A stretch of 64,000 nt of DNA. It comes from an uncultured Verrucomicrobiae bacterium (GTDB taxonomy: Bacteria > Verrucomicrobiota > Verrucomicrobiia > Palsa-1439). The position numbers and the translations under genes were made by a program. Positions within the stretch are counted from its first letter, which is position 1. Each line of letters starts with the position of its first letter. Positions 18,676 through 44,265 of this stretch are shown piece by piece. Below the pieces are notes generated by a model, which ran no database searches, was not told the origin of the DNA, and saw only the letters and a program-made list of their open reading frames with translations. Location of the stretch: contig CAWEWF010000004.1 of assembly GCA_963812605.1 (NCBI GenBank), forward strand, positions 320,001 through 384,000, read 5' to 3'.

Positions 18676-18700
18676 CCCAGCTCCACACACGATTTATCGA

Positions 18701-19651: not shown

Positions 19652-19672
19652 ATTCTCCTTTGCACATTGAGA

Positions 19673-20047: not shown

Positions 20048-20065
20048 ACCGGCTCCTTTCCGTGG

Positions 20066-21441: not shown

Positions 21442-21845
21442 GATATCACCCTCCAAGCTGCCAACGTGAACACCAGGCCAAGGTAAACGAACAAGAGCGT
21501 GAAGAAATAGTGGGCCAGGCGATTCTGCGCTTTGACCCGGTCGTCGTAATAGCCAAGCTGCACGACAATCCGCGGGAGCCAAAATGCGGCCATCAACAAG
21601 CTGAGGAATCGTCCCAGCCCCGGTCCGCTCGCCAGTTCGGGCGCAAACCACACGCTCAACGCGCCCAAACCGATCAACACCCCGACAATGTAGACCGCAT
21701 GCACGATGAAAATCTGGCGAACAATCGCCGACATTTTCATCAGATTCGCGCCGTACCCCAGCTTCCGGGGGATAAACAGGTTTGCCGCTGCGATTACCCA
21801 TTGGATGATTCCCGCCGCCCAGATATATGGCACCAGCCGATTCAT
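21438..21845 (-). CDS. Membrane protein, paralog of the downstream gene
   Basis: AANLFIPRKLGYGANLMKMSAIVRQIFIVH...FWLPRIVVQLGYY aligns by eye with the 21004-21441 protein. Confidence 0.7.
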   Translation of the reverse strand: MNRLVPYIWAAGIIQWVIAAANLFIPRKLGYGANLMKMSAIVRQIFIVHAVYIVGVLIGLGALSVWFAPELASGPGLGRFLSLLMAAFWLPRIVVQLGYYDDRVKAQNRLAHYFFTLLFVYLGLVFTLAAWRVIS

Positions 21846-21858
21846 GATCGTTCTCCTT

Positions 21859-23055
21859 TCAGTTGACCGCTCCAATCACGCGCAGGAACGGAACCACTAC
21901 GCGCTCGATGAACGGGGGATGAAACAGCCAGAACACCGGTCCAGCCACGATGATCCAGGTCATCAACCGCTGGCGGATGACGCTGCGGCCCCGACGTTGC
22001 CATCGTCTCTCAAGCAACATCCCCAGTCCTTGCAGAGTGAAATACAATGTCGGAAATCCAAACCCGGCTCGGGCCGGTACCGAGATCACCAATTCATGCA
22101 ATGCGCCCGACGCCAAAAATACGCCGAAGGTCGCCGCGCCCGCGCCGTAACGACGACGGAGCGGCGCAAACCACAGCACCTGCGCGAGATCACGAAAGGC
22201 TGTGTTCCACCGCGCACTCCAAAAATCTCGCAGGGAAGTCGCCAGAATCGGTGCGTGCATGATTGGCGGCACCCGCCACGCCAGTGCCAACAAATGCATC
22301 ACCCCGAAATGCAGCAGGAAGGCCAGCCCAACCCAACCGACCCAGCCAACCAGCAGGCTTTGCCCGGCGGGTAGCCGACGCGCCATCCACCAGACCAACA
22401 GCGCTCCCAGGGCGGTTTTGGTGGTCGCAAATACCCAGTCCAAAGGTCGTGCATCATGTCCCGCACCCGCAAAAGTGCTCGGTGACATTCCGGGCCACAA
22501 CAACCAATAGCCGAGACTGCGGCCGACTCCCATCCGCAGACCACTGCGCCGCGCGCGAATCCACGTGATCCATTTGAAGCCGAAAAACAGGGCCGCGGCC
22601 AGGCTCCACATCCACGCCCAGGCGGGAAGCTTTCTGCCAACTGCCAGGGCGAATCCCAGACCGCATCCTCCCGGCAACCAATCCGATGTTTGCTCCGCAG
22701 GGGTGCTCGCAATTTCACAGCCTCCTTGTCGGCAGTATCGCCGGGCCGCGAACTGGCGGTAACCGCACTCCAGCAGGCGCATCGCACCGGGCGCGCGACT
22801 CATGGCCCACAACGGCCACGCCCACCACACTCGTCGCGCCAGGTAAACCACCGCGCGGGCGCCGCCGATCAACTCGCCCGCGTCGGTCACCAGTTTCATC
22901 TCGTCCGCCGGTTCCGACAGCGGGACGAACCGGAACCCATATTTACCCAGCCAGCGCTGGCCACGCCGCGCCCAGGCCGTGCAGAACCGACATTCGGCGT
23001 CGTAGAACACGCATCCGCCATCTTTGTCAGTTATTTCTGTAATTTCAGAATTCAT
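21859..23055 (-). CDS. Fusion of DCC1/DUF393 thiol-disulfide oxidoreductase and MBOAT (wax-synthase type) acyltransferase
   Basis: N-terminal VFYDAECRFC (DxxCxxC). C-terminal PILATSLRDFWSARWN...FLASGALHEL (MBOAT Asn/His). Single uninterrupted ORF. Confidence 0.8.
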   Translation of the reverse strand: MNSEITEITDKDGGCVFYDAECRFCTAWARRGQRWLGKYGFRFVPLSEPADEMKLVTDAGELIGGARAVVYLARRVWWAWPLWAMSRAPGAMRLLECGYRQFAARRYCRQGGCEIASTPAEQTSDWLPGGCGLGFALAVGRKLPAWAWMWSLAAALFFGFKWITWIRARRSGLRMGVGRSLGYWLLWPGMSPSTFAGAGHDARPLDWVFATTKTALGALLVWWMARRLPAGQSLLVGWVGWVGLAFLLHFGVMHLLALAWRVPPIMHAPILATSLRDFWSARWNTAFRDLAQVLWFAPLRRRYGAGAATFGVFLASGALHELVISVPARAGFGFPTLYFTLQGLGMLLERRWQRRGRSVIRQRLMTWIIVAGPVFWLFHPPFIERVVVPFLRVIGAVN

Positions 23056-23067
23056 GGTCCAAAAAAA

Positions 23068-23590
23068 TCAGCGCAGCAGCGCGCCGACCTTTCCACCCAT
23101 CTTCATTAATTTTCGCAACGTCGCCGGCGGGAGTTTTCCGACATCCGCGTAGCAAGCTGAGGCGGCCTCGAAGAATTCGAGCATCTTCGCCAGTTGCTCC
23201 CGCGCGTATTCGTCCTCTTTCCCCCCGGCCCGTCCCTCTTCCACCGCCTCCCGCAGCAATCCCATCGTCGGTTCCACTTCGCGCCGCATCCGCTCGTGGA
23301 TCACAATCTGGAAAAGCGCCCAGAACGTCCTTGTGCGTCTCGAAATGATCGCGGCGATCCCCCAGGACATGGATCACCTTCACCAGGCCCCAATTCTGCA
23401 ATTCTTTCAGGCTGGTGCTGACGTTGGAGCGCGCCACGGACAAGGTCTGGGAAATCTCCTCCGCGTTCAGCGGCTTCGGCGAGACGAACAGCAGCGCATG
23501 GACCTGCGCGACCGTGCGGTTGATCCCCCAGCGGGTCCCCATCTCCCCCCAGTGCAGGATGAACTTTCTTGTGAGCGGCGTCAGCTTCAT
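23068..23590 (-). CDS. GbsR/MarR family transcriptional regulator (frameshift near 23325)
   Basis: KFILHWGEMGTRWGINRTVAQVHALL...SVARSNVSTSLKELQNWGLV...GDRRDHF, continuing as FWALFQIVIHERMRREVEP. Confidence 0.85.
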
Positions 23591-23629: not shown

Positions 23630-24778
23630 TCAAGCGCCTTTTTCCAGCACGGCTCCGATGATTTCCGCCGGTGTGTCCCAACTGAAACGGGCGGCGTGCC
23701 GGCGTCCGCCTTCGCCCAGCCGTTGCCGCAAGGCCGGATCGGTCATAAGTTGCTGCAAGGCCTTCGCCAGCGCCGCCACATCACCCTCGGCGATGAGTAG
23801 TCCGGTTTCGCCGTCCACGACCGCTTCTGCGGTGCCGCCGCTACGGTAGCCCACGACCGGTTTCCCGTGGAACCCAGCTTCGAGATAGGTAATGCCGAAT
23901 CCTTCCACGCTTTTCGGCAATGTCCGGCTGGTCATGGCGAAGATGTCGCATTGCTGGTACGTGCGCGCGAGGGTGTCGGTGATCTCGCCGAGAGGATCGA
24001 AGGCCACGCCGGCGTTCCGACAGGTTTGTTCCACCCGCCGCAAGTATTCCACGTCGCCCTTGCCGCCAACCTGGTAAATGACCTTCGCCCGCAATTCGGC
24101 CGGCAACAGCGCCAGTGCCTGCGCGGTGTCGAGTTGCCCTTTGCGCGGGTGAACGCGGGCCAGTGTGAGGACGCGGATCTTGTCGTCGCCGGGCTTCGCG
24201 ACTGGACCCGACTGCATGGCGGCCGTACTGCACGAGCAGGGAGCCATGACAATCCGCCCAATCAACGAAGACAGGAAGCTCCGTTCGATCAACGACCGGG
24301 AGAACCGGGAAACCGTCAGCACGCACTCGGCGTGCGGAAAAAAACGCCGGGCCCAGAACCTCCAAAATGGGTTGCGCTCGAACCGCAGCACCTCGGAACC
24401 ATGCAGCAGCGAAAGGATGCGTCGGCATTTGACGCGGCCCAGAGGCAGGAGAATCATAAAGGCCATATGTGCGCCGACGCTCGTAAGCAGCACGGTCGCC
24501 GGCTCCAGTTGCGCCCGCCGCGCGACCAGTTCCCGCGCAAATTGCGTCATGTCCCAAAACCCGAGGCTGCCGCCGGCGCGCAATCGCACGACGGGAAACG
24601 TCTGCTTTTCGGGCGCGCCACGCGTTCCGTAGTCCGGCGCCCACACTTCGACGGTTTGACCGGCACGGTGAAGGGCCGCCGCCAATTCCGCGCTGTACGT
24701 GGCGACGCCGCCGCGAAACGGGGCGAACTCGTGGGTGACGATCACGATTCTCGGTTTTGCGCTTGCGGGTGGTGTCAT
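23630..24778 (-). CDS. Glycosyltransferase family 4
   Basis: VTHEFAPFRGGVATY, LARVHPRKGQ, EGFGITYLEAGFHGKPVV. Confidence 0.9.
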   Translation of the reverse strand: MTPPASAKPRIVIVTHEFAPFRGGVATYSAELAAALHRAGQTVEVWAPDYGTRGAPEKQTFPVVRLRAGGSLGFWDMTQFARELVARRAQLEPATVLLTSVGAHMAFMILLPLGRVKCRRILSLLHGSEVLRFERNPFWRFWARRFFPHAECVLTVSRFSRSLIERSFLSSLIGRIVMAPCSCSTAAMQSGPVAKPGDDKIRVLTLARVHPRKGQLDTAQALALLPAELRAKVIYQVGGKGDVEYLRRVEQTCRNAGVAFDPLGEITDTLARTYQQCDIFAMTSRTLPKSVEGFGITYLEAGFHGKPVVGYRSGGTAEAVVDGETGLLIAEGDVAALAKALQQLMTDPALRQRLGEGGRRHAARFSWDTPAEIIGAVLEKGA

Positions 24779-24898
24779 GCGTGGGCTACCGTCATCTCAA
24801 CAGACTGGCATGGCCCTGCCAACCCAAAAAAGCACTTTCACTTTGGCATGGGGTTTGGTATCAGTCTCGCGACGAACCAAAAATCAGAAGTGTAGTTT

Positions 24899-25828
24899 TT
24901 GATGAGCGTAACTTTGACCGAAAATGATGTGGCCGACCTGAAGGAAGGACTGCGCCGGTGCAGCCCGGAAACGATTGAAGCCGCCATCCGCTACCGCGAA
25001 AACGGCGATGTCGCCGCGATTCCGACCATCGTCTTCGGGATTCTCGACCGCTATCAACCCGCCACGGCAGCGGTAAAACTTTCGGAAGCGAATGAAAATA
25101 CGCGCCTCGTCGAAGACATCGGGCTGGACTCGCTGACGCTCCTCGAAATCGTCCTCTCCATCGAGGAAGTCCTCAAACTACGGATCGAGAATGAGGAACT
25201 TCGTGAAATCCGCACTCTCGGTCAGCTTAACAAGTTTCTCCACGACAAGATCACGGGCGCAACACGCGAAGCGCCCGCCAAGCGTTATACCCGCGAGCAA
25301 ATTGCGCTCGTGCTGCCGCAACAACCGCCCTTCCTGTTCCTCGACGAGGCCCTGCTCAGCGGGGACAGCGTAAAGGCCAGTTACACGATCAAGGGCGACG
25401 AGTTCTTCCTCGAAGGCCATTTCAAGGACGAACCGATTTTCCCGGCTTCGATTGTCTTCGAGGCGATGGGACAGGCCGCGTGCCTCTGGGTGTTGGAAAA
25501 CGGGCCCGCCCGGCTTGGCAAGGAAATCAAGTCGAACCACGTTTTCTTTGCGTCGCTGGATGGCGCACACTTCTATCGCAAGGCCAAACCCGGCGAAAAC
25601 CTGGAGTTCGAACAGAAGCTGGCGAAACTGCGCGAGCCACTGGCGGTTTTTGAGGGAACCGTGACTTCCAACGGCGAGCGGGTCGCCAAAGTCGAGCGTC
25701 TCGTGCTCGCGTTCGGTGAGCAGTTGCTGCCGGGCAGCGCCACGCCGGTGATTGTGCCAGAGTTGGAGGCTCCCGCAACGCTCGCGGTGCCCATCTCCTC
25801 CAACGGCTCGGAAAACGGTCCGTCCTGA
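24899..25828 (+). CDS. Acyl carrier protein fused to FabZ/FabA-like dehydratase
   Basis: ACP motif LVEDIGLDSLTLLEI. Hot-dog dehydratase motifs LPQQPPFLFLD and FLEGHFKDEPIFPASIVFEAMGQ. Confidence 0.85.
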   Translation: MMSVTLTENDVADLKEGLRRCSPETIEAAIRYRENGDVAAIPTIVFGILDRYQPATAAVKLSEANENTRLVEDIGLDSLTLLEIVLSIEEVLKLRIENEELREIRTLGQLNKFLHDKITGATREAPAKRYTREQIALVLPQQPPFLFLDEALLSGDSVKASYTIKGDEFFLEGHFKDEPIFPASIVFEAMGQAACLWVLENGPARLGKEIKSNHVFFASLDGAHFYRKAKPGENLEFEQKLAKLREPLAVFEGTVTSNGERVAKVERLVLAFGEQLLPGSATPVIVPELEAPATLAVPISSNGSENGPS

Positions 25829-25851
25829 TTCCACAGCAATCTATTCCGCCA

Positions 25852-27120
25852 ATGAAGCGTGTCGCCGTCACGGGCCTGGGGTTCATCACCAGCATCGGCA
25901 ACAATCGCGAGCAGGTACTGCGCAGTCTGCAGGAATGCCGCACGGGCGTCGAGCTGTTTCCGGATTTCGCCGCCCCCGAGATTCCCGTAAAACTGGCGGG
26001 TACCGTCAAGGGCTTCCAGTTTCCCACGCCCTACTTCGAGGATTGGATCTACCCGCCGGAATTCCAACTCACCCGCGAGCAGTTGCGACCGATGGCGCCA
26101 AACTCGCTTTACGCCTACTGCGCCATGCAACAGGCGATCGCCGGGGCGAAGCTGGCCCCCGACCTGATCTCGAACCCGCGCACCGGCGTCATGTGCGCTT
26201 CCGGCGGATCGATGTGGCTCGCCTATGACAACCTGCACACCATGCTCACCCGCGGCGTCGCTCGCTGCCAGCCAATGGGGATCATCAATAGCATTCCCGG
26301 CTCGCTCTACATCAATCTCGTCACGGCCTTCAAAATCAAGGGCGGCTCGGCCGGCTTCTCCAGTGCCTGCTCGTCCTCCGCCCACGCGCTCGGCGCCGCT
26401 TGCGACCTGATCCGCCTGGATCGCCAGGACGTGGTCTTCGTGGTCGGCGCGGAGGACTGCAATAAATTCAACATTCTTCCCTTCGCCGGCATTCGCGCCC
26501 TGAGCCTGCAGACCGATCCTCAAAAAACACCCTGCGCCTTCGACGTGAAGCGCGACGGATTCGTCGGCACGGGTGGGGCAACCGTTCTCGTGCTGGAAGA
26601 TCTGGATCATGCGCAACGCCGCGGCGCACCCATTGCCGCGGAAGTACTCGGGTGGGGCCAGTCCTCCGACGGCTATAACGTCATCGCGCCCGACCCCAAC
26701 GGCGATGGCCTGCGACGCGCGATGGAAGCCGCGTTGCAAGATGCGAAGCTGCAAAAGGACGATGTCGATTACATCAACGCGCATGCCACCTCCACGCCTG
26801 CGGGTGACGTCAGTGAGTGCCGCGCAATCCGCACATTATTCGGCAACGGCAAAACCCCGCCGGTCAGCAGCACGAAGAGTCTCACGGGCCACGGCCTGTC
26901 GCTGGCCGGGGCAATGGAAGCCGCGTTCTGCGTCCTCGCGGTGCAGGAAAAGTTTATCCCGGTTTCCGCGCACATTACCCAACTCGATCCGGCCTGCGCC
27001 ATTGTCCCCATCGTCACAAAACCGATCGCCGCCGCGCCGCGCGTCGCCCTCAACAATTCGAGCGGCTTTGGCGGCACCAACGTCTGTCTCGCGATCCGCC
27101 GCTGGGAAAATGGCCGCTAG
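25852..27120 (+). CDS. fabB: Beta-ketoacyl-ACP synthase (FabB/FabF family)
   Basis: Cys-His-His triad in FSSACSSS, YINAHATST and KSLTGHGL; C-terminal NSSGFGGTN. FabB versus FabF is not resolved. Confidence 0.85.
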   Translation: MKRVAVTGLGFITSIGNNREQVLRSLQECRTGVELFPDFAAPEIPVKLAGTVKGFQFPTPYFEDWIYPPEFQLTREQLRPMAPNSLYAYCAMQQAIAGAKLAPDLISNPRTGVMCASGGSMWLAYDNLHTMLTRGVARCQPMGIINSIPGSLYINLVTAFKIKGGSAGFSSACSSSAHALGAACDLIRLDRQDVVFVVGAEDCNKFNILPFAGIRALSLQTDPQKTPCAFDVKRDGFVGTGGATVLVLEDLDHAQRRGAPIAAEVLGWGQSSDGYNVIAPDPNGDGLRRAMEAALQDAKLQKDDVDYINAHATSTPAGDVSECRAIRTLFGNGKTPPVSSTKSLTGHGLSLAGAMEAAFCVLAVQEKFIPVSAHITQLDPACAIVPIVTKPIAAAPRVALNNSSGFGGTNVCLAIRRWENGR

Positions 27121-27931
27121 CGAACCCAGGAAGGTTTTCCTCACCGGCGCCAGTTCCGGCATCGGACTGGAAACGGCCCGACTTCTTGTCCAACACGGCT
27201 GCGAAGTGTGGGGAACATCCCGCGACGTGTCGCGCCTGCCGCAATTGCCGCGCTTCCACCCGGTGCGAATGGACCTGGCCAGTTTCGACTCGATCCGCCA
27301 GGGTTTTGCCATGGCCCAGCGGGAAGCCGGCGCATTCGACGCGCTGATCAACAATGCCGGCGATGGCGCGTTCGGCCCGCTGGAAACGATGCCGGCGCAG
27401 ATGGTGCGCGCGCAGTTTCAGGTGCTGGTCGACGCGCCGCTGGAGTTGATTCGATTGGCGCTCCCGAAAATGCGAGAACGCGGCCGCGGCGTCATCCTCA
27501 ATGTCACCTCGCTCGCCGCGCAGTTCCCGATTCCGTTCATGGCGCCCTACAGCGCGGCGAAATCCGCGCTCAGCCTGTTCACGCAGGGACTGCGGGTGGA
27601 GTTGTCCAACACGTCGATTCACGTCGTCGAGTTGCGGCCCGGGGACATTAACACGCCGTTTCACGAACGGACAAAGAAGGTGGCCACCGCAGCAAGCGCC
27701 GGGGAGCAACGCCGGCTGAAGGCGGTCTGGGATTCGCAAGTCCGCAACATGATGGCCGCGCCGCCGCCTGAGCGCGTCGCCCGGGCCATACTGCGCGCGA
27801 TCACGGCGCCGAACCCGCCACCGTTATTGGTTGTGGGAGGGTGTTTTCAGGCACGGGTAACACCGCTGGCGGCACGGCTCTTGCCGCTTCGATTATTGGA
27901 ATGGGCGCTGCGGCAATACTACCGGCTCTGA
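27110..27931 (+). CDS. Short-chain dehydrogenase/reductase
   Basis: True start at ATG 27110 (MAASEPRKVFLTGASSGIG); LINNAG and YSAAK; overlaps the KAS stop. Confidence 0.9.
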   Translation: MAASEPRKVFLTGASSGIGLETARLLVQHGCEVWGTSRDVSRLPQLPRFHPVRMDLASFDSIRQGFAMAQREAGAFDALINNAGDGAFGPLETMPAQMVRAQFQVLVDAPLELIRLALPKMRERGRGVILNVTSLAAQFPIPFMAPYSAAKSALSLFTQGLRVELSNTSIHVVELRPGDINTPFHERTKKVATAASAGEQRRLKAVWDSQVRNMMAAPPPERVARAILRAITAPNPPPLLVVGGCFQARVTPLAARLLPLRLLEWALRQYYRL

Positions 27932-29069
27932 CGCGGAGCGCCGCAATCGTCCGCACGATATCGCGCGGGTGCATCGGCGGGCAGGCCACTTTCATGGCCT
28001 GACGGACCGCCGCGGGCAGCTCCGGCTGCTTCCGCCACTGCCCCACGATCCGCGCCAGCCCTTCCGGACTGCGAATGAGTTCCGCGAGGCCGTGCTTGCG
28101 GCAGAACTTTACGGTGATGTGTTCCTGCGGCATGATGCCGCCAAGACAGTTCAGCAACAGGGGACAACCGCTGACGATCGCCTCGCTGGTCGTGCCAGTG
28201 CCCGGTCGCGCGACGATAGCCGACACCGAGCGCATCAGCTTGCCGACGTTCGTATTGTGGGGCAGCAGGCGCACCCGCGCCTGTGGGTTGGCCTTCGCCC
28301 ACGCCGAGATTTCGCGTTCGGCGATCTGCGATTTGCCGCAGAGCAGCACCACTTGCGCGTCGCTGTGGCGTTGCTTTAGCGCATCGAGAAAGCGGACGTG
28401 ATTGTGCGCGCCGCGGCTCGAGGCGCTGAGCAGCAAAATGAACTCGTTCGGATCGAGGTCCAACTGCTGGCGGATGAATGCCGCTCGGCCCTCCTCGTCA
28501 GAGGGTTCATCGTAAAAAAACCGGCGCAAGAGAAAGCCCCCGACCTGCGTCTTCTCCGGCGCCATGCCCCAGCGGATGGCGGCCTCGCAGGTTTCGGGAA
28601 CCGCGCCGATGAAAAGATCGGCCGATGGATTCACCCAGTGGCGACTAAAACCGTAGCCGCCCGACAATTCGCCGCAGTAGGTCACGCACTTCACGCGATC
28701 TTCGCCCAATACCTCACGGGCATGGTCGAAGAACGCGTGATTCAAGGAGTCATGCACGCTGAGGAGCACGTCGGGCTGCAGTTCCTCCAGTATCTTGCGA
28801 TACTTTCCCGCGCCCAGCGGCTTGTTCGTGCGAACAATCGCCACGACTTCGAGGAAATTGAAATAGACATGATGCAGGAACGGCGCGGTGCGCTGGATCC
28901 AATTATACAGCCAGACACCGAAAGCGTAGAGTTCGTGCGATTTTTCCAGGGGACGATGAAGCTGCGCCGAAGTATCCAGCGACGGCATCGTCTGGGCCCA
29001 TTCCTGGAAAGCGCGGGCCCGCATGTTGTGGCCCCCCCCTGTGCTCGACGTTAAAAGGACGACGCGCAT
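27801..29069 (-). CDS. MGDG-synthase/UgtP-like lipid glycosyltransferase (GT28)
   Basis: LTSSTGGGHNMRARAF, PDVLLSVH, IVARPGTGTTSEAIVSGCPL, IMPQE. Confidence 0.85.
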   Translation of the reverse strand: MRVVLLTSSTGGGHNMRARAFQEWAQTMPSLDTSAQLHRPLEKSHELYAFGVWLYNWIQRTAPFLHHVYFNFLEVVAIVRTNKPLGAGKYRKILEELQPDVLLSVHDSLNHAFFDHAREVLGEDRVKCVTYCGELSGGYGFSRHWVNPSADLFIGAVPETCEAAIRWGMAPEKTQVGGFLLRRFFYDEPSDEEGRAAFIRQQLDLDPNEFILLLSASSRGAHNHVRFLDALKQRHSDAQVVLLCGKSQIAEREISAWAKANPQARVRLLPHNTNVGKLMRSVSAIVARPGTGTTSEAIVSGCPLLLNCLGGIMPQEHITVKFCRKHGLAELIRSPEGLARIVGQWRKQPELPAAVRQAMKVACPPMHPRDIVRTIAALRVRAGSIAAAPIPIIEAARAVPPAVLPVPENTLPQPITVAGSAP

Positions 29070-29102
29070 AAACGGAGCGGATTATATGATACACCATTCC
29101 TA

Positions 29103-30065
29103 CTACAAGCTTCGAAATGGCTTGCGCCAGACCCAACCCAGCAGCGGGAGTTGTTTCACAATCGCCCCGCAAGACTGTTCATCGCGGTGAAGCGGCGCCG
29201 CAAGCAATAACAGCCCGACCAACAAAATCGTCTGGGTAAAGGTGATGCCCAGCAACAGATAAACGCCAATGTGAAATAGAATCAAGCCGGACCCCCACCA
29301 TCGTTGAAGCGCCGGCCGGAACGCCGCCCAAAAGGCGAACAATTCCACGTACACGGCCACCAATCCGAGCGGCCACCCAAACCAGGGATGGGCGAGGAGC
29401 CAGGGCCCCAGCCAGCTACTGGAGTTCGTTTGCAACAATCGATCCGCGATGATTGACGCAAGACCGGTCGGCAGGAAAAGGTTGTTCTGACCCGCGCCAA
29501 TCTGGTAGATCGCCCCGCCGATCTTTCCCACGCCCGACATCGTATAGGTCAGTAGTACAATCGCCTGGCAAACCCAGAAGATGAGCAAGAAACGTTGTCG
29601 TACTGCCCGACCAGCCGACCGCGCGGGCGCGTTTGGCAAAAACACCAACCAGAAAGCTGTCAACACCCACAGGTGGTAGTTGTGGCTGATCTTGCCAAAC
29701 GAATTGTCCAGCCCCGCAAATTCGAATAGTCCGGCAAACACCAGCGCCCGCGCCCAACGCCTCTCGGGGAAGATTGCGCCAAGAAACGCCGCGACCAGGT
29801 ACCCCGCCAGGATACCCACCCTGCCCACGCGCAACGGCACGGCGTTGAGCCAGCAAACTGGCCAAAGCGCCAGGGTTTCTCGTCGATCCAGGTAGGCCGA
29901 CCAATCGTGCAGTGTGGCCACAGCCATGAACAGGACTGCCACGTAGTAACAGCGCACGACAACTCGCGTGGTGCGAAACGATTCGGTCTGGCGACTCAGC
30001 GTTCCTCGCGGGGCTGGCTGATGGTCGAAACCGAAAAAACGCCGCACCCGCCGAAGGAGGGTCAC
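29103..30065 (-). CDS. Multi-pass membrane protein, HTTM-like
   Basis: About 8 TM segments; NSFGKISHNYH, YTMSGVGK, VYVELFA, ILFHIGVYLLLGITF. Confidence 0.6.
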   Translation of the reverse strand: MTLLRRVRRFFGFDHQPAPRGTLSRQTESFRTTRVVVRCYYVAVLFMAVATLHDWSAYLDRRETLALWPVCWLNAVPLRVGRVGILAGYLVAAFLGAIFPERRWARALVFAGLFEFAGLDNSFGKISHNYHLWVLTAFWLVFLPNAPARSAGRAVRQRFLLIFWVCQAIVLLTYTMSGVGKIGGAIYQIGAGQNNLFLPTGLASIIADRLLQTNSSSWLGPWLLAHPWFGWPLGLVAVYVELFAFWAAFRPALQRWWGSGLILFHIGVYLLLGITFTQTILLVGLLLLAAPLHRDEQSCGAIVKQLPLLGWVWRKPFRSL

Positions 30066-30529
30066 GGCGCTTCTCCCGGCGATACATACTCCGCGAGTGG
30101 TTGGACCTCGTATTGTCCCGTGCGCCAGCGGACCAACGGATCGAAGGTGATTGTCACAAGCTCATACCGGCATGGCGACGGCAGGTGGTTCTTCTCCAAA
30201 ACCTGGCGAATACGCTGTTGCTCGTCGGTTCTTCCCTGCTTCACCGCCAGCCCCAGTTGCTGCACCAGCTCATCGACGGTCACGCTCTGCGGATTCGCCA
30301 CGAAGTCTTCCGCGTCCTGGTAGAAGAGCGGCTGGGTCAATCTTTGCCCATGCGCTTCCTGCAAGCGCACGGCATAGCGCGACTCCGACCCGGGCACCAG
30401 TGGAAACAGGAACCATGAATAAACCGGAAAGACTTCCTGTCGCGGATGCAATGCCGTCGCCAATCCCAGCGCAAAGTAACCCGTCAAAAATAGTGCTACC
30501 CAGCCACGCAAGATTCGGTATGCTGCCAT
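30062..30529 (-). CDS. Membrane-anchored hypothetical protein, coupled to the HTTM-like gene
   Basis: N-terminal TM followed by EVFPVYSWFLF; 4-bp overlap with the downstream gene. Confidence 0.65.
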   Translation of the reverse strand: MAAYRILRGWVALFLTGYFALGLATALHPRQEVFPVYSWFLFPLVPGSESRYAVRLQEAHGQRLTQPLFYQDAEDFVANPQSVTVDELVQQLGLAVKQGRTDEQQRIRQVLEKNHLPSPCRYELVTITFDPLVRWRTGQYEVQPLAEYVSPGEAP

Positions 30530-30617
30530 TCAGTCGTCTCCGTGCCGTCATCCTATCCAAAGCGTACGGCGCGGGTCAGGCTTAAAGTTTTTTTGTGGGC
30601 GGAAATTCCGCGAGACC

Positions 30618-31676
30618 ATGGCCAGAGTCCTTTATGGAGTAATGGGAAATACGTTCGGGCACGTCTCCCGCGCCCTGGCTGTCGCGCGCCGATTGCCGGA
30701 ACATGAATTTCATTTTGTCGGCGGGGGTCGCGTGCCCGAAGTCTTGCGGGGTTTATATCCCGTCCTGGAAGTGCCCGTGGCGCGCACGGTTTATAAGAAA
30801 CAACGCGCTTACGTGCTGGCCACCTGCGGGCACCTCGCTCGTTGCGTGATGAACCAACCGCGCGTGCGTCAGGAGATCCTCGATCTCATCGACCGTTGGC
30901 GGCCCGACATCGCCATTTGTGATCGCGAGTTCTTCCTGCCTCATGCGGTCCGCCAGGCGGGGTTGCCGATGTTTTCGCTCGACCATTCGCATGTGCTACA
31001 GGTCTGCCGCTACAAGGTCCCTGCGTCGCAAGTGGTTTCGTGGTCGCTGTCACGCCTTGAAGATTTTCTCTTCTTCGACCACACCCGTCACAACCTGGTC
31101 ACCTCTTTTTTCCATCCCGAACTCAAGCGCCGCGGTCAAAATGAACTGCTTCCGCCAATCTTGCGACCTGCCGTGCGCGAAATTCAACCGCGGCGGGGCG
31201 ATTACGTCTTTATCTATCAATCAACGCCGACCTTTGGCGCTCTCATCGACGTCGCGCGCCAACTCCAACGACCCGCCATCGTCTACGGTTACCGCAACGA
31301 AAAGGCAGTCGAAGGCAATCTGACATTCAAACCGTTCGATCCGCGGGCCATCCTCGAAGACCTTGCGGGCAGCGCCTACGCTGTCGCCAATGCCGGCCAC
31401 AATCTTATTTGCGAGGCGCTCTACTTTGGCAAACCGCTCCTCTGCTTTCCTGTTGCGGTCAACTTCGAGCAATTTATCAACGCCTGGTACGTGCGCGAAC
31501 TCGGCTACGGCGATTTTTCGATCGGCTTCCAGCCTACCGCCGCGATGTTCGCGGATTTTGAGTCGCGCCTCGACATGTATCGCAGGAAGATTCAGGAAAC
31601 ATTCGTGGACGGCACGGAGATCGTCACCAACCGCGTCCGCGATCTTATCCGCGACTCCCACGGCGCAAAAAAATAA
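30618..31676 (+). CDS. Glycosyltransferase, MJ1255/VC2487-like (GT-B)
   Basis: RVLYGVMGNTFGHVSRALAV, ANAGHNLICEALYFGKPLLCFP..FEQFINA. Confidence 0.85.
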   Translation: MARVLYGVMGNTFGHVSRALAVARRLPEHEFHFVGGGRVPEVLRGLYPVLEVPVARTVYKKQRAYVLATCGHLARCVMNQPRVRQEILDLIDRWRPDIAICDREFFLPHAVRQAGLPMFSLDHSHVLQVCRYKVPASQVVSWSLSRLEDFLFFDHTRHNLVTSFFHPELKRRGQNELLPPILRPAVREIQPRRGDYVFIYQSTPTFGALIDVARQLQRPAIVYGYRNEKAVEGNLTFKPFDPRAILEDLAGSAYAVANAGHNLICEALYFGKPLLCFPVAVNFEQFINAWYVRELGYGDFSIGFQPTAAMFADFESRLDMYRRKIQETFVDGTEIVTNRVRDLIRDSHGAKK

Positions 31677-32904
31677 ATGAGCGCACCGCCAACCATCGCC
31701 TATATCTTCGAGCGTTACCCCGTGCTCTCGCAGACGTTTCTGCGGCGTGAGGTCGCGGGCGTGTGCGGCCAGGGCGTGCGCGTGGAAATCCATTCGATGC
31801 TCACGCCCAGCGCCGCCGATCGAACCCACGCGCTCGCCGACGTGCCCGTCGATTATTTCCGACTGGTGGGAAGCCGGGAAACTGGTCGTCGCCCTGCCCC
31901 GCGAACTGCTGCGCGATCCGGCATTGCTGCGCGACGGCTGGCGATTGTATCGCCGCTACCGTCCCACGAATGCCGAGAACTTCTGGAGCACTATGTGGGC
32001 TGCGATTTTTGCCATCTGCCGCGCCAGCCGCATGCGCCGTCACAAACCCGCCGTGGTTCACGGCGTCTGGGCGACCGGACCCGCCACGGCCGCCGCGATC
32101 CTGGGCCGGCTCTGCGGCATTCCGTTCAGCTTCGGCGGTCACGCCCATGATATTTACCGCCATGGCGGCGACGCATTTCTCGAACCCAAGCTCCGCGCCG
32201 CGAGTTTCGTGCACACAACCACCGCGGCCGGCGCCACGTATTTGCGAGAACACGCGCGTGGCGCGGCAGTGAAGATCATTCTCGCGCGCCGCGGTCTGGA
32301 TCGGCTTCCCCGAAAATCCGCTCGCGATACCGCAACGCGACCAATCCACCTGCTTTCCGTCGGCCGTCTCGTCCCGAAGAAGGGACACGACCACCAACTC
32401 GCTGCTTGCGCCTTGTTGAAGTCGCGGGGCGTGCCATTCGCCTTGAGAATTGTTGGTGACGGCCCATTGCGGGACGAATTACAACGACGGATCGACCACG
32501 ATGAACTCGGCAGTTTGGTCACGCTCTGCGGTGCGCTGTCTCCCGAACACGTCGAAGAAGAGTACCGGTGGGCGGACATTTTTTGGCACACCGGGGTGAT
32601 CGACCCGCAAGGTGACCGCGATGGTATTCCAAATGTGATCCCCGAAGCGTTCGCTCATTGCCTGCCCGTGATCTCCAGCCGTACAGCGGGACCGATGGAA
32701 GCGGTAGAACACGAAACGACCGGGCTGGTCGTGGATGTATCCGACGCCACGGAATTGGCGGGCGCGGTGAAACGTCTCGCCGGCGACCCGGCACTGCGCC
32801 AGCGGCTTGGTGAAAATGGCCGGCGCTGGGTCGAGGAGCATTTCTTGATTGCCCAAAACGCCGCAACATTGGCACGCGCTTTCCATGATGTTTCCCAACG
32901 ATAA
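31677..32904 (+). CDS. Glycosyltransferase family 4, WcaL-like (frameshift near 31860)
   Basis: IAYIFERYPVLSQTFLRREV, then the shifted frame gives FSFGGHAHDIY, SVGRLVPKKG and GDRDGIPNVIPEA. Confidence 0.85.
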
Positions 32905-33562
32905 ACACGCCGCGATCTCGTTTACCTTCGACGATGGCAGTCGCGAGCACTTCGACATGGCCGTGCCGCTGCTGAATGAATTCGGCTTCAAGGCAACGTT
33001 CTTCGTGATCGCCGGCCTGACTCGCGAGAATAAGAGCGATCCGCTCGTGGCCAATCGCCGCCGCGATTGGTGGGCGGAGGTAAGCTGGCAGGAATGGCGC
33101 AGCGCCGCGAACCAGGGCCATGAGATCGGCAATCACTCCCTGACCCATCCCGTTTTGACCCGCTTACGGGAAACGCAACGGTTGGGCGCGGAAGTCGTCG
33201 AAAGCGCGCGCCTCATCGAAGAAAAAATCGGGCAATGGCCGGCGAGCTTCGCATATCCGTACAACAAATCGAACACGACTGTGCGCGAATTGGTTCTCCA
33301 GCATCATCAGGCCGTGAGGGAAGAGCGGATTCGTTACGGCAGCCCCGGCTTTACCCTGGCCAAAGCGAATCGTCTGATTGACCGCGCCATTCGCAAAGGA
33401 GTTTGGGTTGTCTCCATGATTCACGGGATCGGTCGCGGTTACGATCCGCTCGATCCCGACCTGCTTCGCCAGCATCTCCAATACATAAAGGCCCGCGAAG
33501 CTGAAGTTTTGGTTGATACGTTCGGCGCTGTCAGCGCCTGGGTCAAACGGACTTCGGCTTGA
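32885..33562 (+). CDS. Polysaccharide deacetylase (CE4/NodB)
   Basis: ISFTFDDG, GHEIGNHSLTHP, FAYPY. Confidence 0.9.
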   Translation: MMFPNDKHAAISFTFDDGSREHFDMAVPLLNEFGFKATFFVIAGLTRENKSDPLVANRRRDWWAEVSWQEWRSAANQGHEIGNHSLTHPVLTRLRETQRLGAEVVESARLIEEKIGQWPASFAYPYNKSNTTVRELVLQHHQAVREERIRYGSPGFTLAKANRLIDRAIRKGVWVVSMIHGIGRGYDPLDPDLLRQHLQYIKAREAEVLVDTFGAVSAWVKRTSA

Positions 33563-34760
33563 GTCCCGCCTTCTTCATGGCCAACTTGAGCGCTTCGCCA
33601 AAGCGGTCGAGTTGTTCCCGGGTATGCAGCGCCGTCGCTGCGGCGCGAATCAGGTCTTTGCCGGGCGGCACGCCCGGGGCAATCGACATCACCGTGAAAA
33701 AACCCTCGTCCCACAGCGCCTTCCACATCCAATAACACTTCTCCTTGTCGCCGACGACGATCGGCAACGCCGGCGTCGGGCTCTGCCAGTAATCGAGACC
33801 CAGGCCTTCCACGATGTCGCGCAAATAATGATGGTTGGCCCACAATCGCTCCCGATGCTCCGGTTCTTCCTGGATCACCTGCAACGCCGCGAGGGCGCTT
33901 GCCGCCGCCGGGGGACTGATGGCCGCGCTGAAAATAATCTGTCGCGAACTGCTGCGCAGATACTCGATCAACGCCTTGCTTCCCGCCACGAATCCCCCGG
34001 TGCTCGCCAGCGACTTCGAAAAACTGCCCGCAATCAAATCCACGCGCTCCGTCACTCCGAGTTGATCGCACACGCCGCGCCCGTCACGGCCGAGAATCCC
34101 AAAGCCGTGGGCATCGTCCACGACCATCGCCGCGCCGTATTGCCCGGCCAGGTCGCACAATCGCGGGAGTGACGCGATATGCCCCTCCATCGAGTACACG
34201 CCGTCCACCGCGATGGCCTTGGCCTGTTTCGCGTCGAGATGTTCGAGCAGTTGCGCCAGCGAGTCCATGTCCTCGTGCGCGAACCGTTCGATCTTTGCGC
34301 CGCTCAGCAATGCGCCGTCCCACAGCGATGAATGAATGCTGGGATCGACGATCAGGACGTCGTCGCGCTGGACCAAAGAACTTAAACTGCACATGCAAGC
34401 CAGATAACCCGCCGAAGTGACGTGGCACGCCTCCTTGCCGAGGAATGCCGCCAGCGCTTCCTCCAATTCAATGTGGTACGCGCGGCTGCCGTTGGCCAGT
34501 CGCGAACCGCACGAGCTGGCACCCCAGACGTCGAGCGCCTTCTTCGCCGCGGCCACGACCTTCGGATGACGGATCAGGCCGAGGTACTCGTTGGTGGACA
34601 TCATCACCATCGGCCGGCCCTCGACCATGATGTTCACGCCGTCGGCGGAATCGATGACGCGGTAATATGGCGCATACTTCAGCCGCAACCGCGTATTCAC
34701 GTCCGACTCGCACCGCTCAATGATGGGTTTGGACTTGCGAGAAAACAAAACTCGACACAC
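33543..34760 (-). CDS. spt: PLP-dependent alpha-oxoamine synthase, serine palmitoyltransferase-like
   Basis: PYYRVIDS...STNEYLGL, SCGSRLANGS, IHSSLWDG, DGVYSMEG, VDDAHGFG and GSFSKSLASTGG. The FSKS(L)AS and GSRxxNG motifs resemble bacterial SPT more than BioF/KBL (LSKA/LGKA). Confidence 0.7.
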   Translation of the reverse strand: MCRVLFSRKSKPIIERCESDVNTRLRLKYAPYYRVIDSADGVNIMVEGRPMVMMSTNEYLGLIRHPKVVAAAKKALDVWGASSCGSRLANGSRAYHIELEEALAAFLGKEACHVTSAGYLACMCSLSSLVQRDDVLIVDPSIHSSLWDGALLSGAKIERFAHEDMDSLAQLLEHLDAKQAKAIAVDGVYSMEGHIASLPRLCDLAGQYGAAMVVDDAHGFGILGRDGRGVCDQLGVTERVDLIAGSFSKSLASTGGFVAGSKALIEYLRSSSRQIIFSAAISPPAAASALAALQVIQEEPEHRERLWANHHYLRDIVEGLGLDYWQSPTPALPIVVGDKEKCYWMWKALWDEGFFTVMSIAPGVPPGKDLIRAAATALHTREQLDRFGEALKLAMKKAGLKPKSV

Positions 34761-34941
34761 TCCTTTGCCTTCGCGCGAAGCTAATAGAACGTCCCCCGCC
34801 AGTCAAGTCAGGCGGAGGTCGGTAGTGGGCCGGTCAAATATGTGCCCCTCCAAGGAAGGGACGAAGGGCTGGGGCTTCTTGTCCTCGGTAGCTTTAGCAG
34901 AGAGGAGTGCTTCTCTTCCCAGATCTCCCATCCGGAGTCCA

Positions 34942-39053: not shown

Positions 39054-39106
39054 GGGCACTTGCGTTGTCAGAGAGGCGTGATTAGTATCCCTCCGTCGTT
39101 TTCACG

Positions 39107-40225: not shown

Positions 40226-40232
40226 CTTTCGC

Positions 40233-42217: not shown

Positions 42218-42238
42218 AGATGCCTACGAGACCTATTA

Positions 42239-42283: not shown

Positions 42284-42289
42284 GGAAGC

Positions 42290-43359: not shown

Positions 43360-43392
43360 GATTTCTCCTAGACGGGCGTGATAAACCTAACG

Positions 43393-44250: not shown

Positions 44251-44265
44251 TGCCGCGATGTGTGG

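Follow-up and report, generated by a model that had tools for sequence, protein, structure and literature searches.

A Verrucomicrobial gene block as a candidate pathway for a glycosylated sphingoid-base lipid fed from a dedicated ACP

The Caulobacter-type ceramide pathway, as outlined in the parts of two reports that deal with it (PMC11087976, PMC11334938), relies on Spt, a dedicated ACP, an acyl-ACP synthetase, bCerS and CerR. In Bacteroidota, the sphingolipid genes are not clustered according to the corresponding section of Ding et al. (PMC11334938), and the 7-kb stretches that we fetched around two Bacteroidales SPT genes contained no mini-FAS genes. PKS-derived sphingolipids are produced by SgaAB of Pseudomonas fluorescens MYb115, whose SgaA component is presented, in the portion of the paper concerned, as one iterative type I PKS (PMC12134224). 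For the sulfonolipid/capnine pathway, the relevant excerpt has the cysteate fatty acyltransferase CapB/SulA use acyl-ACP, with SDR reduction thereafter (PMC13692747). Spt-like proteins have previously been reported, in the passage of PMC11334938 on this group, from 22 Verrucomicrobiota metagenome-assembled genomes.

Our analysis concerns a locus from a soil-type Verrucomicrobium, situated in a window of 64,000 nt (the whole stretch of DNA that was analyzed), in which a block at 23630-34760 is delimited by gene ends, the stop of GT4a at 23630 and the start of the alpha-oxoamine synthase (AOS) at 34760 (ORF calls). Judged from its genes, this block most likely directs the synthesis of a membrane lipid that resembles a sphingolipid and bears sugars, and does so in a way unlike the known bacterial pathways. 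We put the chances about even that the cluster is a pathway for a glycosylated sphingoid-base lipid fed from a dedicated ACP, the lipid itself being a prediction. The literature that we searched yielded no report of sphingolipids in Verrucomicrobia, which counts against the sphingoid reading; the Spt-like proteins already reported from Verrucomicrobiota count in its favor.

Gene content of the block

Family calls derive from Pfam and NCBIfam profile searches unless another method is named. The ten genes listed by a preceding sequence-only reading are all present, and their calls are correct:

23630-24778, minus strand: GT4a, family 4 glycosyltransferase (PF00534, 98.5 bits)
24899/24902-25828, plus strand: ACP-FabZ fusion, ACP plus 3-hydroxyacyl-ACP dehydratase (Pfam PP-binding at 65-110, FabA-like at 139-265)
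25852-27120, plus strand: KAS, elongating beta-ketoacyl-ACP synthase of the FabB/FabF type (Pfam ketoacyl-synt N and C domains)
27110-27931, plus strand: classical SDR, 273 aa (PF00106, 133 bits)
27801-29069, minus strand: GT28-like lipid glycosyltransferase related to MGDG synthase/UgtP (PF04101, 26.6 bits)
29103-30065, minus strand: HTTM-fold polytopic membrane protein, 320 aa (AlphaFold model)
30062-30529, minus strand: 155-aa protein with one N-terminal hydrophobic stretch (ORF without family match)
30618-31676, plus strand: MJ1255/VC2487-type glycosyltransferase (PF13528, 193 bits)
31747-32904, plus strand: GT4b, family 4 glycosyltransferase (PF00534, 107 bits)
32849-33562, plus strand: CE4 (NodB-type) deacetylase (PF01522, 86.7 bits)
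33543-34760, minus strand: AOS, PLP-dependent, of an SPT-like clade (PF00155, 172.8 bits)

The ACP-FabZ fusion, which likely starts with the ATG at 24902 (308 aa), carries the DSL serine, the GHF histidine and the EAMGQ glutamate; its best PDB matches are FabZ and ACP, and it reaches 74.7 bits with the NCBIfam FabZ model (cut-off 113). KAS possesses the Cys-His-His residues (motifs ACSSS, HATST and GHG) and resembles both FabB (351 bits, cut-off 630) and FabF (349 bits, cut-off 494), passing neither. The ATG of the SDR overlaps the KAS stop by 11 nt, the two genes being translationally coupled; at its 3' end, the SDR gene shares 131 nt with the GT28-like gene. The SDR contains the motif TGASSGIG and scores 159 bits with PRK06182 (NCBIfam) and 139.7 bits over its full length with KdsR, the 3-ketodihydrosphingosine reductase (cut-off 400). 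None of the 15 families listed for it at E<=1e-28 is a FabG model; in a scan of the longer ORF 26573-27931, FabG reached 88.6 bits. These scores count for the sphingoid reading. The enzyme could reduce ketosphinganine or else serve as keto-reductase in chain building; given the translational coupling to KAS, the latter role fits equally well, and this counts against the sphingoid reading.

Among the transferases, the GT28-like protein scores below the cut-off with MGDG_synth (Pfam, 17.1 bits) and reaches 69.9 bits with the diglucosyl-DAG synthase model (NCBIfam, cut-off 500). Among solved structures, it comes closest to MGDG synthase (4wyi, 51.7 bits over residues 2-365, which is nearly the full length) and, next, to a processive diacylglycerol glucosyltransferase (9wde, 48.7 bits). 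That these relatives glycosylate a membrane lipid counts for the sphingoid reading; that the known ones use diacylglycerol, not ceramide, counts against it. They also favor a distinctly unlikely alternative, in which the transferases and the mini-FAS would make a glycosyl-diacylglycerol with a special fatty acid and the AOS would be a conserved neighbor with a separate role. It would suit such a role that the AOS is a single convergent gene and shares no operon with the others; against it, GT4b abuts the AOS as its commonest neighbor, in 18 of the 36 Verrucomicrobial loci for which 2.5 kb or more of sequence downstream of the AOS was available. The MJ1255-type enzyme (TIGR00661, 126.6 bits, cut-off 195.9) is found in close relatives and, at 37-39% identity, in two variant loci (L023, L027). 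GT4a, divergent from the ACP-FabZ gene, forms the left edge of the conserved block and occupies the corresponding place both in close relatives, at 70-84% identity, and in Opitutaceae, at 37-40%.

Neither GT4 has meaningful similarity to the GT4 adjoining the Roseomonas SPT, which again counts against the sphingoid reading, and both score best with exopolysaccharide models, e.g., EpsE at 132.6 bits (NCBIfam). One might envisage that there is no single product, the transferases serving a surface polysaccharide or LPS and ACP-FabZ, KAS and SDR an unrelated lipid or polyene in a drifting neighborhood. The precomputed Pfam lists of the 748 ACP-FabZ homologues, all named ones of which are from Verrucomicrobia, include PF22818 and PF22817, presumably aryl-polyene dehydratase-like families, and the accessories vary between lineages (CE4, HTTM pair, radical SAM genes, a thioesterase, giant multi-GT genes). 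We nevertheless consider this explanation very improbable: the block harbors no polysaccharide polymerase, flippase or priming transferase (Pfam, NCBIfam), there is one KAS only and no chain-length factor, and the core order is kept across classes.

CE4 and the HTTM-like pair are treated here as accessory inserts. CE4 carries the motifs TFDD and HSLTH; no homologue occurs in any of the 52 fetched loci, and 32885-33542 is unaligned in L031, L014, L005 and L015 (DNA comparison), so that the gene is an insert specific to this window. De-N-acetylation, put forward by the sequence-only reading as a pathway step, therefore falls outside the conserved pathway. The HTTM-like pair is present in three of the 52 loci (L005, L014, L015; both genes together), with a fragment in a fourth (L008); the 320-aa gene is absent from L031, the nearest relative. 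The 155-aa gene overlaps the start of its partner by 4 nt. Pfam gave no match for either protein even at E<=5, nor did NCBIfam, and the 155-aa protein matches nothing known. The AlphaFold (AF2) model of the 320-aa protein (pLDDT 90.4) has chains of vitamin-K gamma-carboxylase (gamma-glutamyl carboxylase) as its ten best PDB matches, with TM of about 0.5 over 280-293 columns, probability 0.96-1.00 and E 0.2-0.5. A precomputed Pfam domain is found in only two of its 115 homologues, fused to a DCC domain, and its third-nearest cluster in the atlas has HTTM on 13% of members.

The alpha-oxoamine synthase

SPT-CFB (NF047600) is the best NCBIfam model for the AOS with 398 bits (cut-off 640), ahead of bioF (337, cut-off 426) and KBL (313, cut-off 460); that the curated SPT cut-off is not passed counts against the sphingoid reading. 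The best PDB match is Sphingobacterium multivorum SPT (315 bits), followed by Thermus BioF/KBL (247), KBL (221) and BioF (194). Four reference SPTs pass NCBIfam cut-offs (L053 and L054 from Bacteroidales, L055 and L061 from Roseomonas), as do nine BioF/KBL references. In the careful 38-row tree, the Verrucomicrobial AOS (support 100/100) join all four SPT references in a 24-row clade (UFBoot 98 / SH-aLRT 92), and all nine BioF/KBL references lie outside it. The suggested SPT-like nature of the PLP enzyme is thus borne out by the phylogeny. This placement, like the SPT best matches among NCBIfam models and PDB structures, counts for the sphingoid reading; the placement also speaks against the glycosyl-diacylglycerol alternative. 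A quick 92-row tree places the AOS in a polytomy beside, not inside, the SPT-reference group, which counts against the sphingoid reading.

Hand mapping on the PDB-search alignment with S. multivorum SPT showed N57, Y59, G85, S86, H143, S190, D215, A217, H218, S248, K249 and A279 to be conserved, the PLP and serine-network residues being those named for that enzyme in the pertinent part of PMC10196870. These residues are largely common to all AOS enzymes, which counts against an SPT-specific reading, and four positions near the substrate differ (A79C, F83L, N117C, M271I), which counts against the sphingoid reading. The same differences would suit an AOS that uses glycine, alanine, cysteate or another amino acid, leading to a 1-deoxy, sulfonated or non-classical amino-lipid that is then glycosylated. 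The long, separate branch (length 0.78), specific to Verrucomicrobia, and the failure to pass any SPT cut-off point in this direction, as do a G-Y where the cysteate enzyme has its F-G-Y region in the stretch described (PMC13692747) and the proposal in the relevant section of Ding et al. (PMC11334938) that enzymes of the Spt-like kind may accept other amino acids. We nonetheless regard such a substrate as rather unlikely: the Asn/Gly/Ser/Ser network, which reaches the serine hydroxyl via water, is kept, cysteate acyltransferase structures attain 181-191 bits in the PDB search against 315 for SPT, and a cysteate synthase gene was not found in the window.

Gene order, linkage and the neighboring exporter

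AOS homologues with 74-96% identity are found in Verrucomicrobia metagenome-assembled genomes. The core, which we define as the AOS, a GT4, the GT28/MGDG-synthase-like transferase, the SDR, KAS, the ACP-FabZ fusion and a second GT4, keeps the order AOS, GT4b, GT28, SDR, KAS, ACP-FabZ, GT4a in L014, L017 and L031, and does so identically in Opitutaceae (L032, L040, L043), whose AOS is only 52-56% identical; such same-order adjacency between classes counts for the sphingoid reading and against an AOS that is just a neighbor of glycosyl-diacylglycerol genes. At the DNA level, 23676-34811 aligns with related loci, the synteny with L031 and L014 beginning at 23676. Because the block aligns at the DNA level and the core recurs across two classes, the arrangement is no chance juxtaposition. 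Among the 27 Verrucomicrobial loci that offer 8 kb or more of sequence downstream of the AOS, nine have KAS and ACP-FabZ, 15 have at least one core gene, and 12 have none; these 12 count against the sphingoid reading and favor the glycosyl-diacylglycerol alternative. The AOS-core linkage is therefore frequent, not universal, and the assumed co-conservation holds for the AOS with the mini-FAS and the GT4/GT28 genes, even in distant Opitutaceae, yet fails in those 12 loci. That 18 longest-contig sizes are common to the homologue tables of AOS and ACP-FabZ counts for linkage; one 324356-bp contig (L002) is also listed for an ACP-FabZ homologue, and no core gene adjoins its AOS.

Beyond the AOS, 36238-42217 (plus strand) encodes a tripartite MacB/DevBCA-type exporter (Pfam):

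36238-37692, plus strand: outer-membrane factor
37689-39053, plus strand: second outer-membrane factor
39107-40225, plus strand: HlyD-type adaptor
40233-41480, plus strand: FtsX/MacB permease
within 41018-42217, plus strand: ABC ATPase

Of the 34 loci with at least 6 kb upstream of the AOS, 17 have three or more of the four exporter genes there, which counts for the sphingoid reading. In Rariglobus (L033, L034), adaptor, permease and ATPase run in the same direction as the AOS, with 46 nt between the end of the ATPase match and the start of the AOS match. We propose that the exporter belongs to the lipid system. In the heterocyst glycolipid system, FAS/PKS-like chain synthesis, a glycosyltransferase and a MacB-type exporter (DevBCA-TolC) occur together and yield an envelope glycolipid, a glycosylated fatty alcohol made without an AOS step. 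On the other side, an extended SDR with weak resemblance to CerR is present at 18701-19651, 4 kb away from the block; it is non-syntenic in relatives.

Proposed route and comparison with known systems

There is roughly an equal chance either way that the product of the locus is a glycosylated long-chain amino-alcohol (sphingoid-type) membrane lipid. To make it, the dedicated ACP within ACP-FabZ would carry malonate, with which KAS would condense a fatty acyl thioester. The chain would thereby end up on that ACP, a loading task that in Caulobacter falls to an acyl-ACP synthetase. The beta-keto group would be processed by a reductase, the fused FabZ domain and housekeeping enzymes, and the SPT-clade AOS would join the acyl-ACP to an amino acid, most probably serine, to form a 3-keto long-chain base whose keto group the KdsR-like SDR would reduce. 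A short sugar head group would be added by the GT28/MGDG-synthase-like enzyme, the two GT4s and the MJ1255-type transferase; in this genome only, CE4 may de-N-acetylate an amino sugar and the HTTM-fold membrane enzyme may add a further modification. The MacB-type exporter may then carry the lipid to the outer membrane. This route builds on established gene identities, catalytic residues, clade membership of the AOS and synteny; which substrates are used, in which order the steps run, what the SDR does, any N-acylation and export are predictions.

The cluster had been taken to be self-contained. This does not hold, because a bCerS-like gene, an acyl-ACP synthetase, an enoyl reductase and a malonyl-CoA:ACP transacylase are absent, as are a phosphopantetheinyl transferase and an N-acyltransferase (Pfam and NCBIfam for the cluster). 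The earlier remark that no GNAT-type bCerS is visible stands and now extends from the window to 44 Verrucomicrobial loci (tblastn, two SPT-adjacent 380-aa proxies); the absence of an N-acyltransferase of this kind counts against the sphingoid reading.

The sulfonolipid/capnine pathway shares with our proposal an AOS that uses acyl-ACP, followed by SDR reduction, but the cysteate enzymes form their own branch, with the lower scores given above, and cysteate synthase is lacking here. The resemblance to the heterocyst glycolipid system is functional only. The Bacteroidota SPT and KdsR models (NF047600, NF049977) provide the best AOS model and the full-length SDR match, and the S. multivorum enzyme the best solved AOS structure, yet the scores are far below the curated cut-offs. 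With the Caulobacter pathway, the locus shares the linkage between an AOS of the SPT clade and a dedicated ACP, and a product that is presumably an outer-membrane lipid, later glycosylated. It differs in that the ACP forms one protein with a FabZ dehydratase and has KAS, rather than an acyl-ACP synthetase, as its partner; a bCerS-like gene was not found, and the reductase in the linkage group belongs to the classical SDRs and not to the extended, NDUFA9-like ones. With SgaAB, as far as the corresponding part of PMC12134224 describes it, the locus would have in common that an acyl thioester is built by machinery devoted to this task and then passed on to an AOS that stands apart from it (SPT activity in SgaAB); what distinguishes it are the discrete type II parts (KAS, ACP-dehydratase fusion, SDR) and four glycosyltransferases.

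Gene content of the block and its conservation

Both limits that the sequence-only reading had drawn around the cluster, 23630 and 34760, coincide with gene ends, and the observation is confirmed. The genes between them, in a window with a G+C content of approximately 59%, are as follows.

Genes of the block (window coordinates, strand, product)
23630-24778 (-), GT4a, a family 4 glycosyltransferase
24899-25828 (+), ACP-FabZ fusion, probable start at the ATG at 24902
25852-27120 (+), KAS
27110-27931 (+), SDR
27801-29069 (-), GT28-like glycosyltransferase
29103-30065 (-), 320-aa membrane protein
30062-30529 (-), 155-aa protein
30618-31676 (+), MJ1255-type GT
31747-32904 (+), GT4b
32849-33562 (+), CE4 deacetylase
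33543-34760 (-), AOS, a PLP-dependent alpha-oxoamine synthase

Apparent transcription units join ACP-FabZ, KAS and SDR on the plus strand, the 155-aa, 320-aa and GT28-like genes on the minus strand, and the MJ1255-type GT, GT4b and CE4 genes again on the plus strand; AOS stands alone and is convergent with CE4. The SDR gene and the convergent GT28-like gene overlap by 131 nt at their 3' ends (27801-27931), with tblastn coordinates pointing to a comparable overlap in the related loci L031 and L014.

As read from the translations, the ACP-FabZ fusion carries the serine of the ACP DSL motif (the phosphopantetheine site) together with the FabZ His and Glu, and the Cys-His-His triad of KAS is intact; the domain matches agree. 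With the catalytic residues of KAS, ACP and dehydratase all in place, the block matches a type II fatty-acid synthase elongation module in these residues. In CE4, both the TFDD and the HSxxH motifs are found. The similarity of the GT28-like protein spans both Rossmann halves of membrane-lipid-glycosylating enzymes: in a PDB sequence search, 4wyi matches residues 2-365 with 51.7 bits and 9wde reaches 48.7 bits, the Pfam and NCBIfam scores being weak. We regard this protein as a putative lipid glycosyltransferase and as kin of MGDG synthase and UgtP. GT4b has no PDB relative at E≤1e-12, and a kinship of GT4a and GT4b with the GT4 enzyme encoded beside the Roseomonas SPT (serine palmitoyltransferase) was rejected, as the best E values (0.32 and 0.003) concern short stretches only. 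An Rfam scan of 17000-42500 gave no match at gathering scores.

The 320-aa and 155-aa proteins had been described as an HTTM-like pair. For the larger protein this holds at the level of the fold but not through Pfam family PF05090, and its 155-aa partner matches no family. A Pfam search with the 320-aa protein returned nothing at E≤5, so that PF05090 was not matched, and this family is likewise found on none of its 115 homologues, whose precomputed domain lists hold no Pfam domain except in two proteins with a fused DCC domain. The ten best Foldseek matches of its AlphaFold model (pLDDT 90.4) are all GGCX (gamma-glutamyl carboxylase) chains, with TMq values of 0.44-0.51 and probabilities of 0.96-1.00, at E values of only 0.2-0.5. 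Since these TM values of about 0.5 compare with 0.1-0.2 for unrelated matches, the model supports a predicted HTTM/vitamin-K gamma-carboxylase-like membrane fold.

One scan of species-representative genomes provided 52 loci, 44 of them Verrucomicrobial, with AOS identities of 52-95%, against which the window proteins were compared by tblastn. The order AOS, GT4b, GT28-like, SDR, KAS, ACP-FabZ, GT4a is identical in close relatives (L014, L017, L031) and in Opitutaceae (L032, L040, L043). Cephaloticoccus capnophilus CV41 and C. primus CAG34 carry AOS, GT4s and an SDR only. GT4b occurs in half of the loci with at least 2.5 kb downstream of AOS (18/36). Among the 27 loci with at least 8 kb downstream, nine have both KAS and ACP-FabZ, 15 have at least one of GT4b, GT28 and KAS, and 12 have none. 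Co-conservation of the cluster is upheld by the core order kept in relatives and Opitutaceae, but not by the 12 coreless loci. In the five coreless loci that were annotated (L001, L002, L004, L007, L013), AOS is followed by a gene of the size of an AraC/PocR regulator and by unrelated genes; a Pfam scan of all but L004 bore out the regulator in each of the four. At least one coreless genome, that of L002, seems to carry an ACP-FabZ homologue elsewhere on its AOS contig (324356 bp; entries matched by eye through their size in bp), and the homologue tables of AOS and ACP-FabZ have 18 contig sizes in common, again a by-eye match of sizes.

Two other readings of the block were weighed. That the genes form a glycoglycerolipid cluster, to which AOS is merely an unrelated neighbour, appears distinctly improbable to us with the same core order found in two groups of genomes, the lipid-glycosylating kinship of the GT28-like enzyme and the loci in which AOS has no core gene beside it being the observations on its side. 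That no single product arises from these genes we consider very improbable, and here the changing accessory genes have to be weighed against the same shared order.

The DNA of L031, whose AOS is 95% identical, aligns to the window at 23676-29051, 30618-32884 and 33543-34807, and the gaps in this alignment mark the 320-aa/155-aa pair and CE4 as inserts relative to L031. In the DNA alignment, L014 carries the pair and lacks CE4, for which all 52 fetched loci gave zero homologues. Other lineages possess accessories of their own: in Methylacidiphilum (L023, L027) these are a radical SAM/SPASM gene and one for a PlsC-like acyltransferase, joined in L027 by a B12-radical SAM gene; Opitutaceae have a 4HBT thioesterase behind GT4a, and L022 encodes a 1122-aa multi-GT protein. 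The upstream genes at 17983-23590 (DUF2071, YndJ-like, DCC1::MBOAT_2, MarR) were rejected as cluster members because synteny with relatives begins only at 23676. One of them, at 21859-23055(-), lies outside the syntenic block, some 6 kb away from the HTTM-fold gene, and encodes a DCC1-like thiol-disulfide oxidoreductase domain fused to an MBOAT_2 acyltransferase domain.

The alpha-oxoamine synthase

A grouping of AOS with BioF or KBL (other alpha-oxoamine synthase groups), which the sequence-only reading had named as grounds for refutation, is seen in neither of two phylogenies, and one of them places AOS with SPTs. The SPT references were two Bacteroidales proteins above the SPT-CFB cut-off and two from Roseomonas above that of SPT-Beta; E. 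coli BioF and Kbl were included as further references. In a quick tree of 92 rows, all BioF- and KBL-passing rows form one clade (SH-aLRT 99) with the window AOS outside; the Verrucomicrobial AOS proteins form a clade of their own (100) in a polytomy beside the group that holds the SPT references. A careful tree of 38 rows, chosen by hand from the 92, unites the Verrucomicrobial AOS proteins with all four SPT references in a 24-row clade (UFBoot 98/SH-aLRT 92), which includes the SPT-like proteins of Rubrobacter and Aureispira and none of the nine BioF/KBL references. Membership of AOS in BioF/KBL is thus rejected by both trees and by the order of scores. SPT-type genes also occur on replicons catalogued as plasmids, in two Roseomonas loci (L055, L061) and in Rubrobacter (L056). 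The Roseomonas genes have an ACP, a diacylglycerol-kinase-family gene and a CDP-alcohol phosphatidyltransferase as neighbours, with glycosyltransferases in L055 too, and the Rubrobacter gene adjoins a 380-aa protein and an oxidoreductase.

AOS passed none of the NCBIfam SPT models, scoring 398 bits against a cut-off of 640 for NF047600 (SPT-CFB), 332 against 500 for NF047599 and 269 against 670 for NF047603, and it stays below the cut-offs for bioF (337 versus 426 bits) and KBL (313 versus 460 bits) as well; its relatives in L023, L032, L038 and L019 likewise fail the SPT cut-offs. Among PDB proteins, the SPT of Sphingobacterium multivorum ranks first (315 bits), followed by Thermus BioF/KBL (247), Sphingomonas SPT (234), KBL (221), BioF (194) and the cysteate acyltransferases (181-191 bits). 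All named AOS homologues, at 74-96% identity, are from Verrucomicrobia, which points to a member of the Verrucomicrobiia as the source of the window. Among 1.84 billion 50%-identity representatives, a search brought up a single full-length protein of the same kind (P0125, 64%) plus three shorter sequences (53-64%), the next being 41-45% identical. NCBIfam labels were assigned to 74 of the 150 best representatives, namely those of 340-470 aa minus two fragmentary rows: 11 pass bioF, one passes the BioF/KBL models and none passes an SPT model, with most scoring best on the SPT model.

When aligned by hand with the S. multivorum SPT, whose functional residues are named in the accessible portion of PMC10196870, K249, H143, D215 and H218 of AOS correspond to K244, H138, D210 and H213. 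AOS consequently fits a fold-type I PLP enzyme with a Schiff-base lysine and PLP-binding His/Asp/His residues. In the same hand mapping onto the residues named in that portion, those on the substrate side depart from the S. multivorum enzyme, and the AOS branch is long and separate (length 0.78). Given these two features, serine can be considered only a putative substrate of what the careful tree indicates to be an SPT-clade enzyme outside BioF/KBL. The same two features speak for the use of another amino acid, an alternative that we judge rather unlikely.

Reduction, N-acylation and export

The SDR, which is of the PRK06182/KdsR kind and has a TGxxxGxG motif, is the only reductase that NCBIfam finds among the genes at 23630-34760. 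Its full-length match to the model of KdsR (3-ketodihydrosphingosine reductase), at 139.7 bits, makes it a candidate ketosphinganine reductase; no FabG model is among the families listed at E≤1e-28, and FabG reached 88.6 bits in a scan of the longer ORF that contains the SDR. Translational coupling, seen as an 11-nt overlap between the ATG of the SDR and the stop codon of KAS, favours it as a candidate keto-reductase of the chain-building module. PDB searches with the SDR gave no relative at E≤1e-25 and, at E≤1e-17, nothing but generic oxidoreductases; the positional SDR of Opitutaceae L032 has no NCBIfam match at E≤1e-28. An AOS-linked SDR of Cephaloticoccus was dropped as support for the ketosphinganine role, being about 30% identical and scoring like a generic FabG-type enzyme. 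An extended SDR of 316 aa at 18701-19651(-), NAD-epimerase-like with a GGTGFVG motif and generic NCBIfam matches only, shares 36% identity across 165 aa with the oxidoreductase whose gene neighbours the SPT-like one on the Rubrobacter plasmid. It has no counterpart near AOS in relatives and is not syntenic; it could be a reductase like CerR of the ceramide pathway, or unrelated.

As proxies for bCerS, the N-acyltransferase of that pathway, we used the 380-aa and 385-aa proteins encoded after the SPT-like genes of Rubrobacter (L056) and Aureispira (L062), which are 32% identical to each other and whose bCerS identity derives from position only. With these proxies, tblastn found a homologue in Latescibacterota (L049), none in the window (E≤1e-3) and none among the 44 Verrucomicrobial loci (E≤1e-5). 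The earlier remark that the window lacks a bCerS therefore agrees with the search by these two proxies, and N-acylation is not accounted for by the cluster. In addition, Pfam and NCBIfam disclosed no FabG-type keto-reductase, enoyl reductase or malonyl transacylase among the genes at 23630-34760, and a phosphopantetheinyl transferase and an acyl-ACP synthetase are absent from the block as well. With these chain-building partners and a bCerS-proxy homologue missing, the description of the cluster as self-contained had to be given up. A candidate for the missing acylation step in relatives is a PlsC-like acyltransferase found within 10 kb of AOS in 8 of the 44 Verrucomicrobial loci (L023, L027, L002, L005, L007, L008, L014, L026). 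Located at 11240-11962 in L023 and at 12682-13398 in L027, it adjoins the radical SAM/SPASM gene in these two. The window has no homologue of it.

Divergent from AOS, Pfam identifies two outer-membrane factor genes, an HlyD adaptor, an FtsX/MacB permease and an ABC ATPase. All parts of a MacB/DevBCA-type tripartite exporter are thus present, including an FtsX permease with a MacB periplasmic domain. Exporter genes, at least three of them, lie upstream of AOS in 17 of the 34 loci with at least 6 kb of upstream sequence. In Rariglobus (Opitutaceae; L033 534-4706, L034 2-3057), adaptor, permease and ATPase are co-directional with AOS, with 46 nt between the end of the ATPase match and the start of the AOS match, and this looks like an operon. 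That AOS and the exporter are linked in two different arrangements speaks for something beyond a gene order handed down by descent, and lipid would be a putative substrate of the exporter. According to the available excerpts of a 2024 Caulobacter article (PMC11087976), no flippase or transporter for bacterial sphingolipids has been identified so far. The 1.5-kb gap between AOS and exporter holds two short DNA matches to L031, a 75-aa OmdA-like ORF and a 194-aa membrane ORF lacking a family match; no regulator was found in it.

Directly after the exporter, G+C falls to 0.527 at 42000-44300, where a PIN-domain gene (42496-42888) and a T5orf172/MUG113-domain gene (43393-44250(-)) probably form a small mobile or defence islet. 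At 45558-47457(-), a 299-aa ORF with no family match lies between partial ORFs for an ABC-2 membrane protein (112 aa) and an ABC ATPase (182 aa); adjoining HlyD and TetR genes, this may be a disrupted transporter. A polysaccharide cluster of the O-antigen type that uses an ABC transporter occupies 52311-63017; it contains a Wzm/Wzt transporter (Wzt C-terminal domain included), GT2/GT4 genes and several methyltransferases. At the other end of the window, 3799-13852 codes for two subtilases (451 and 926 aa) and for two proteins with He_PIG Ig domains, probably secreted or surface proteins.

A possible sphingoid glycolipid and its relation to known pathways

The sequence-only proposal of a glycosphingolipid or aminolipid cluster is supported in part: the SPT clade of AOS and the linkage of the core genes speak for it, self-containment and conservation of CE4 (0/52 loci) against it. 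What the genes most likely make is a glycosylated lipid of the sphingoid type, built from a chain carried on ACP, a reading that we hold to be about evenly balanced. A further-reaching scheme, which we put forward as a long shot, would have Verrucomicrobia make sphingosine-type glycolipids without acyl-ACP synthetase, bCerS or desaturase. KAS would load the chain onto the ACP-FabZ fusion, and the fused dehydratase would leave a trans-2-enoyl-ACP because no enoyl reductase acts. AOS would then condense the enoyl-ACP with serine, so that the long-chain base would receive its 4,5-double bond while the chain is being assembled. In the MacB-type exporter one would have the sphingolipid transporter that the Caulobacter field, in the excerpted 2024 text (PMC11087976), reports as not yet identified.

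The accessible sections of Ding et al. (PMC11334938) count Spt-like proteins in 22 Verrucomicrobiota metagenome-assembled genomes and give no gene context for them. In the literature within reach of our search, beyond which most subscription journals lie, we found neither this architecture or Spt gene context nor any Verrucomicrobial sphingolipid described.

What is understood of sphingolipid synthesis in bacteria comes from a few Proteobacteria and Bacteroidota. If our reading is true, a phylum widespread in soil and freshwater would possess an outer-membrane glycosphingolipid derived from a dedicated ACP-dehydratase/KAS module, and this module would be a new way of feeding an SPT. The conserved exporter beside AOS would then be a concrete candidate for sphingolipid transport, and the locus a genomic marker by which environmental glycosyl-ceramide signals could be assigned to Verrucomicrobia.

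As far as the consulted excerpts on the Caulobacter pathway describe it, an SPT-clade enzyme and a dedicated ACP are common to both systems, whereas ACP loading differs here, no homologue of the bCerS proxies is found and no linked CerR is evident. With Bacteroidota, the cluster shares the SPT and KdsR models as the best-scoring ones, both remaining below their cut-offs. Pseudomonas SgaAB, in the portion of PMC12134224 available, resembles the cluster in that a dedicated chain builder feeds an AOS; in contrast, the builder encoded here consists of type II parts.
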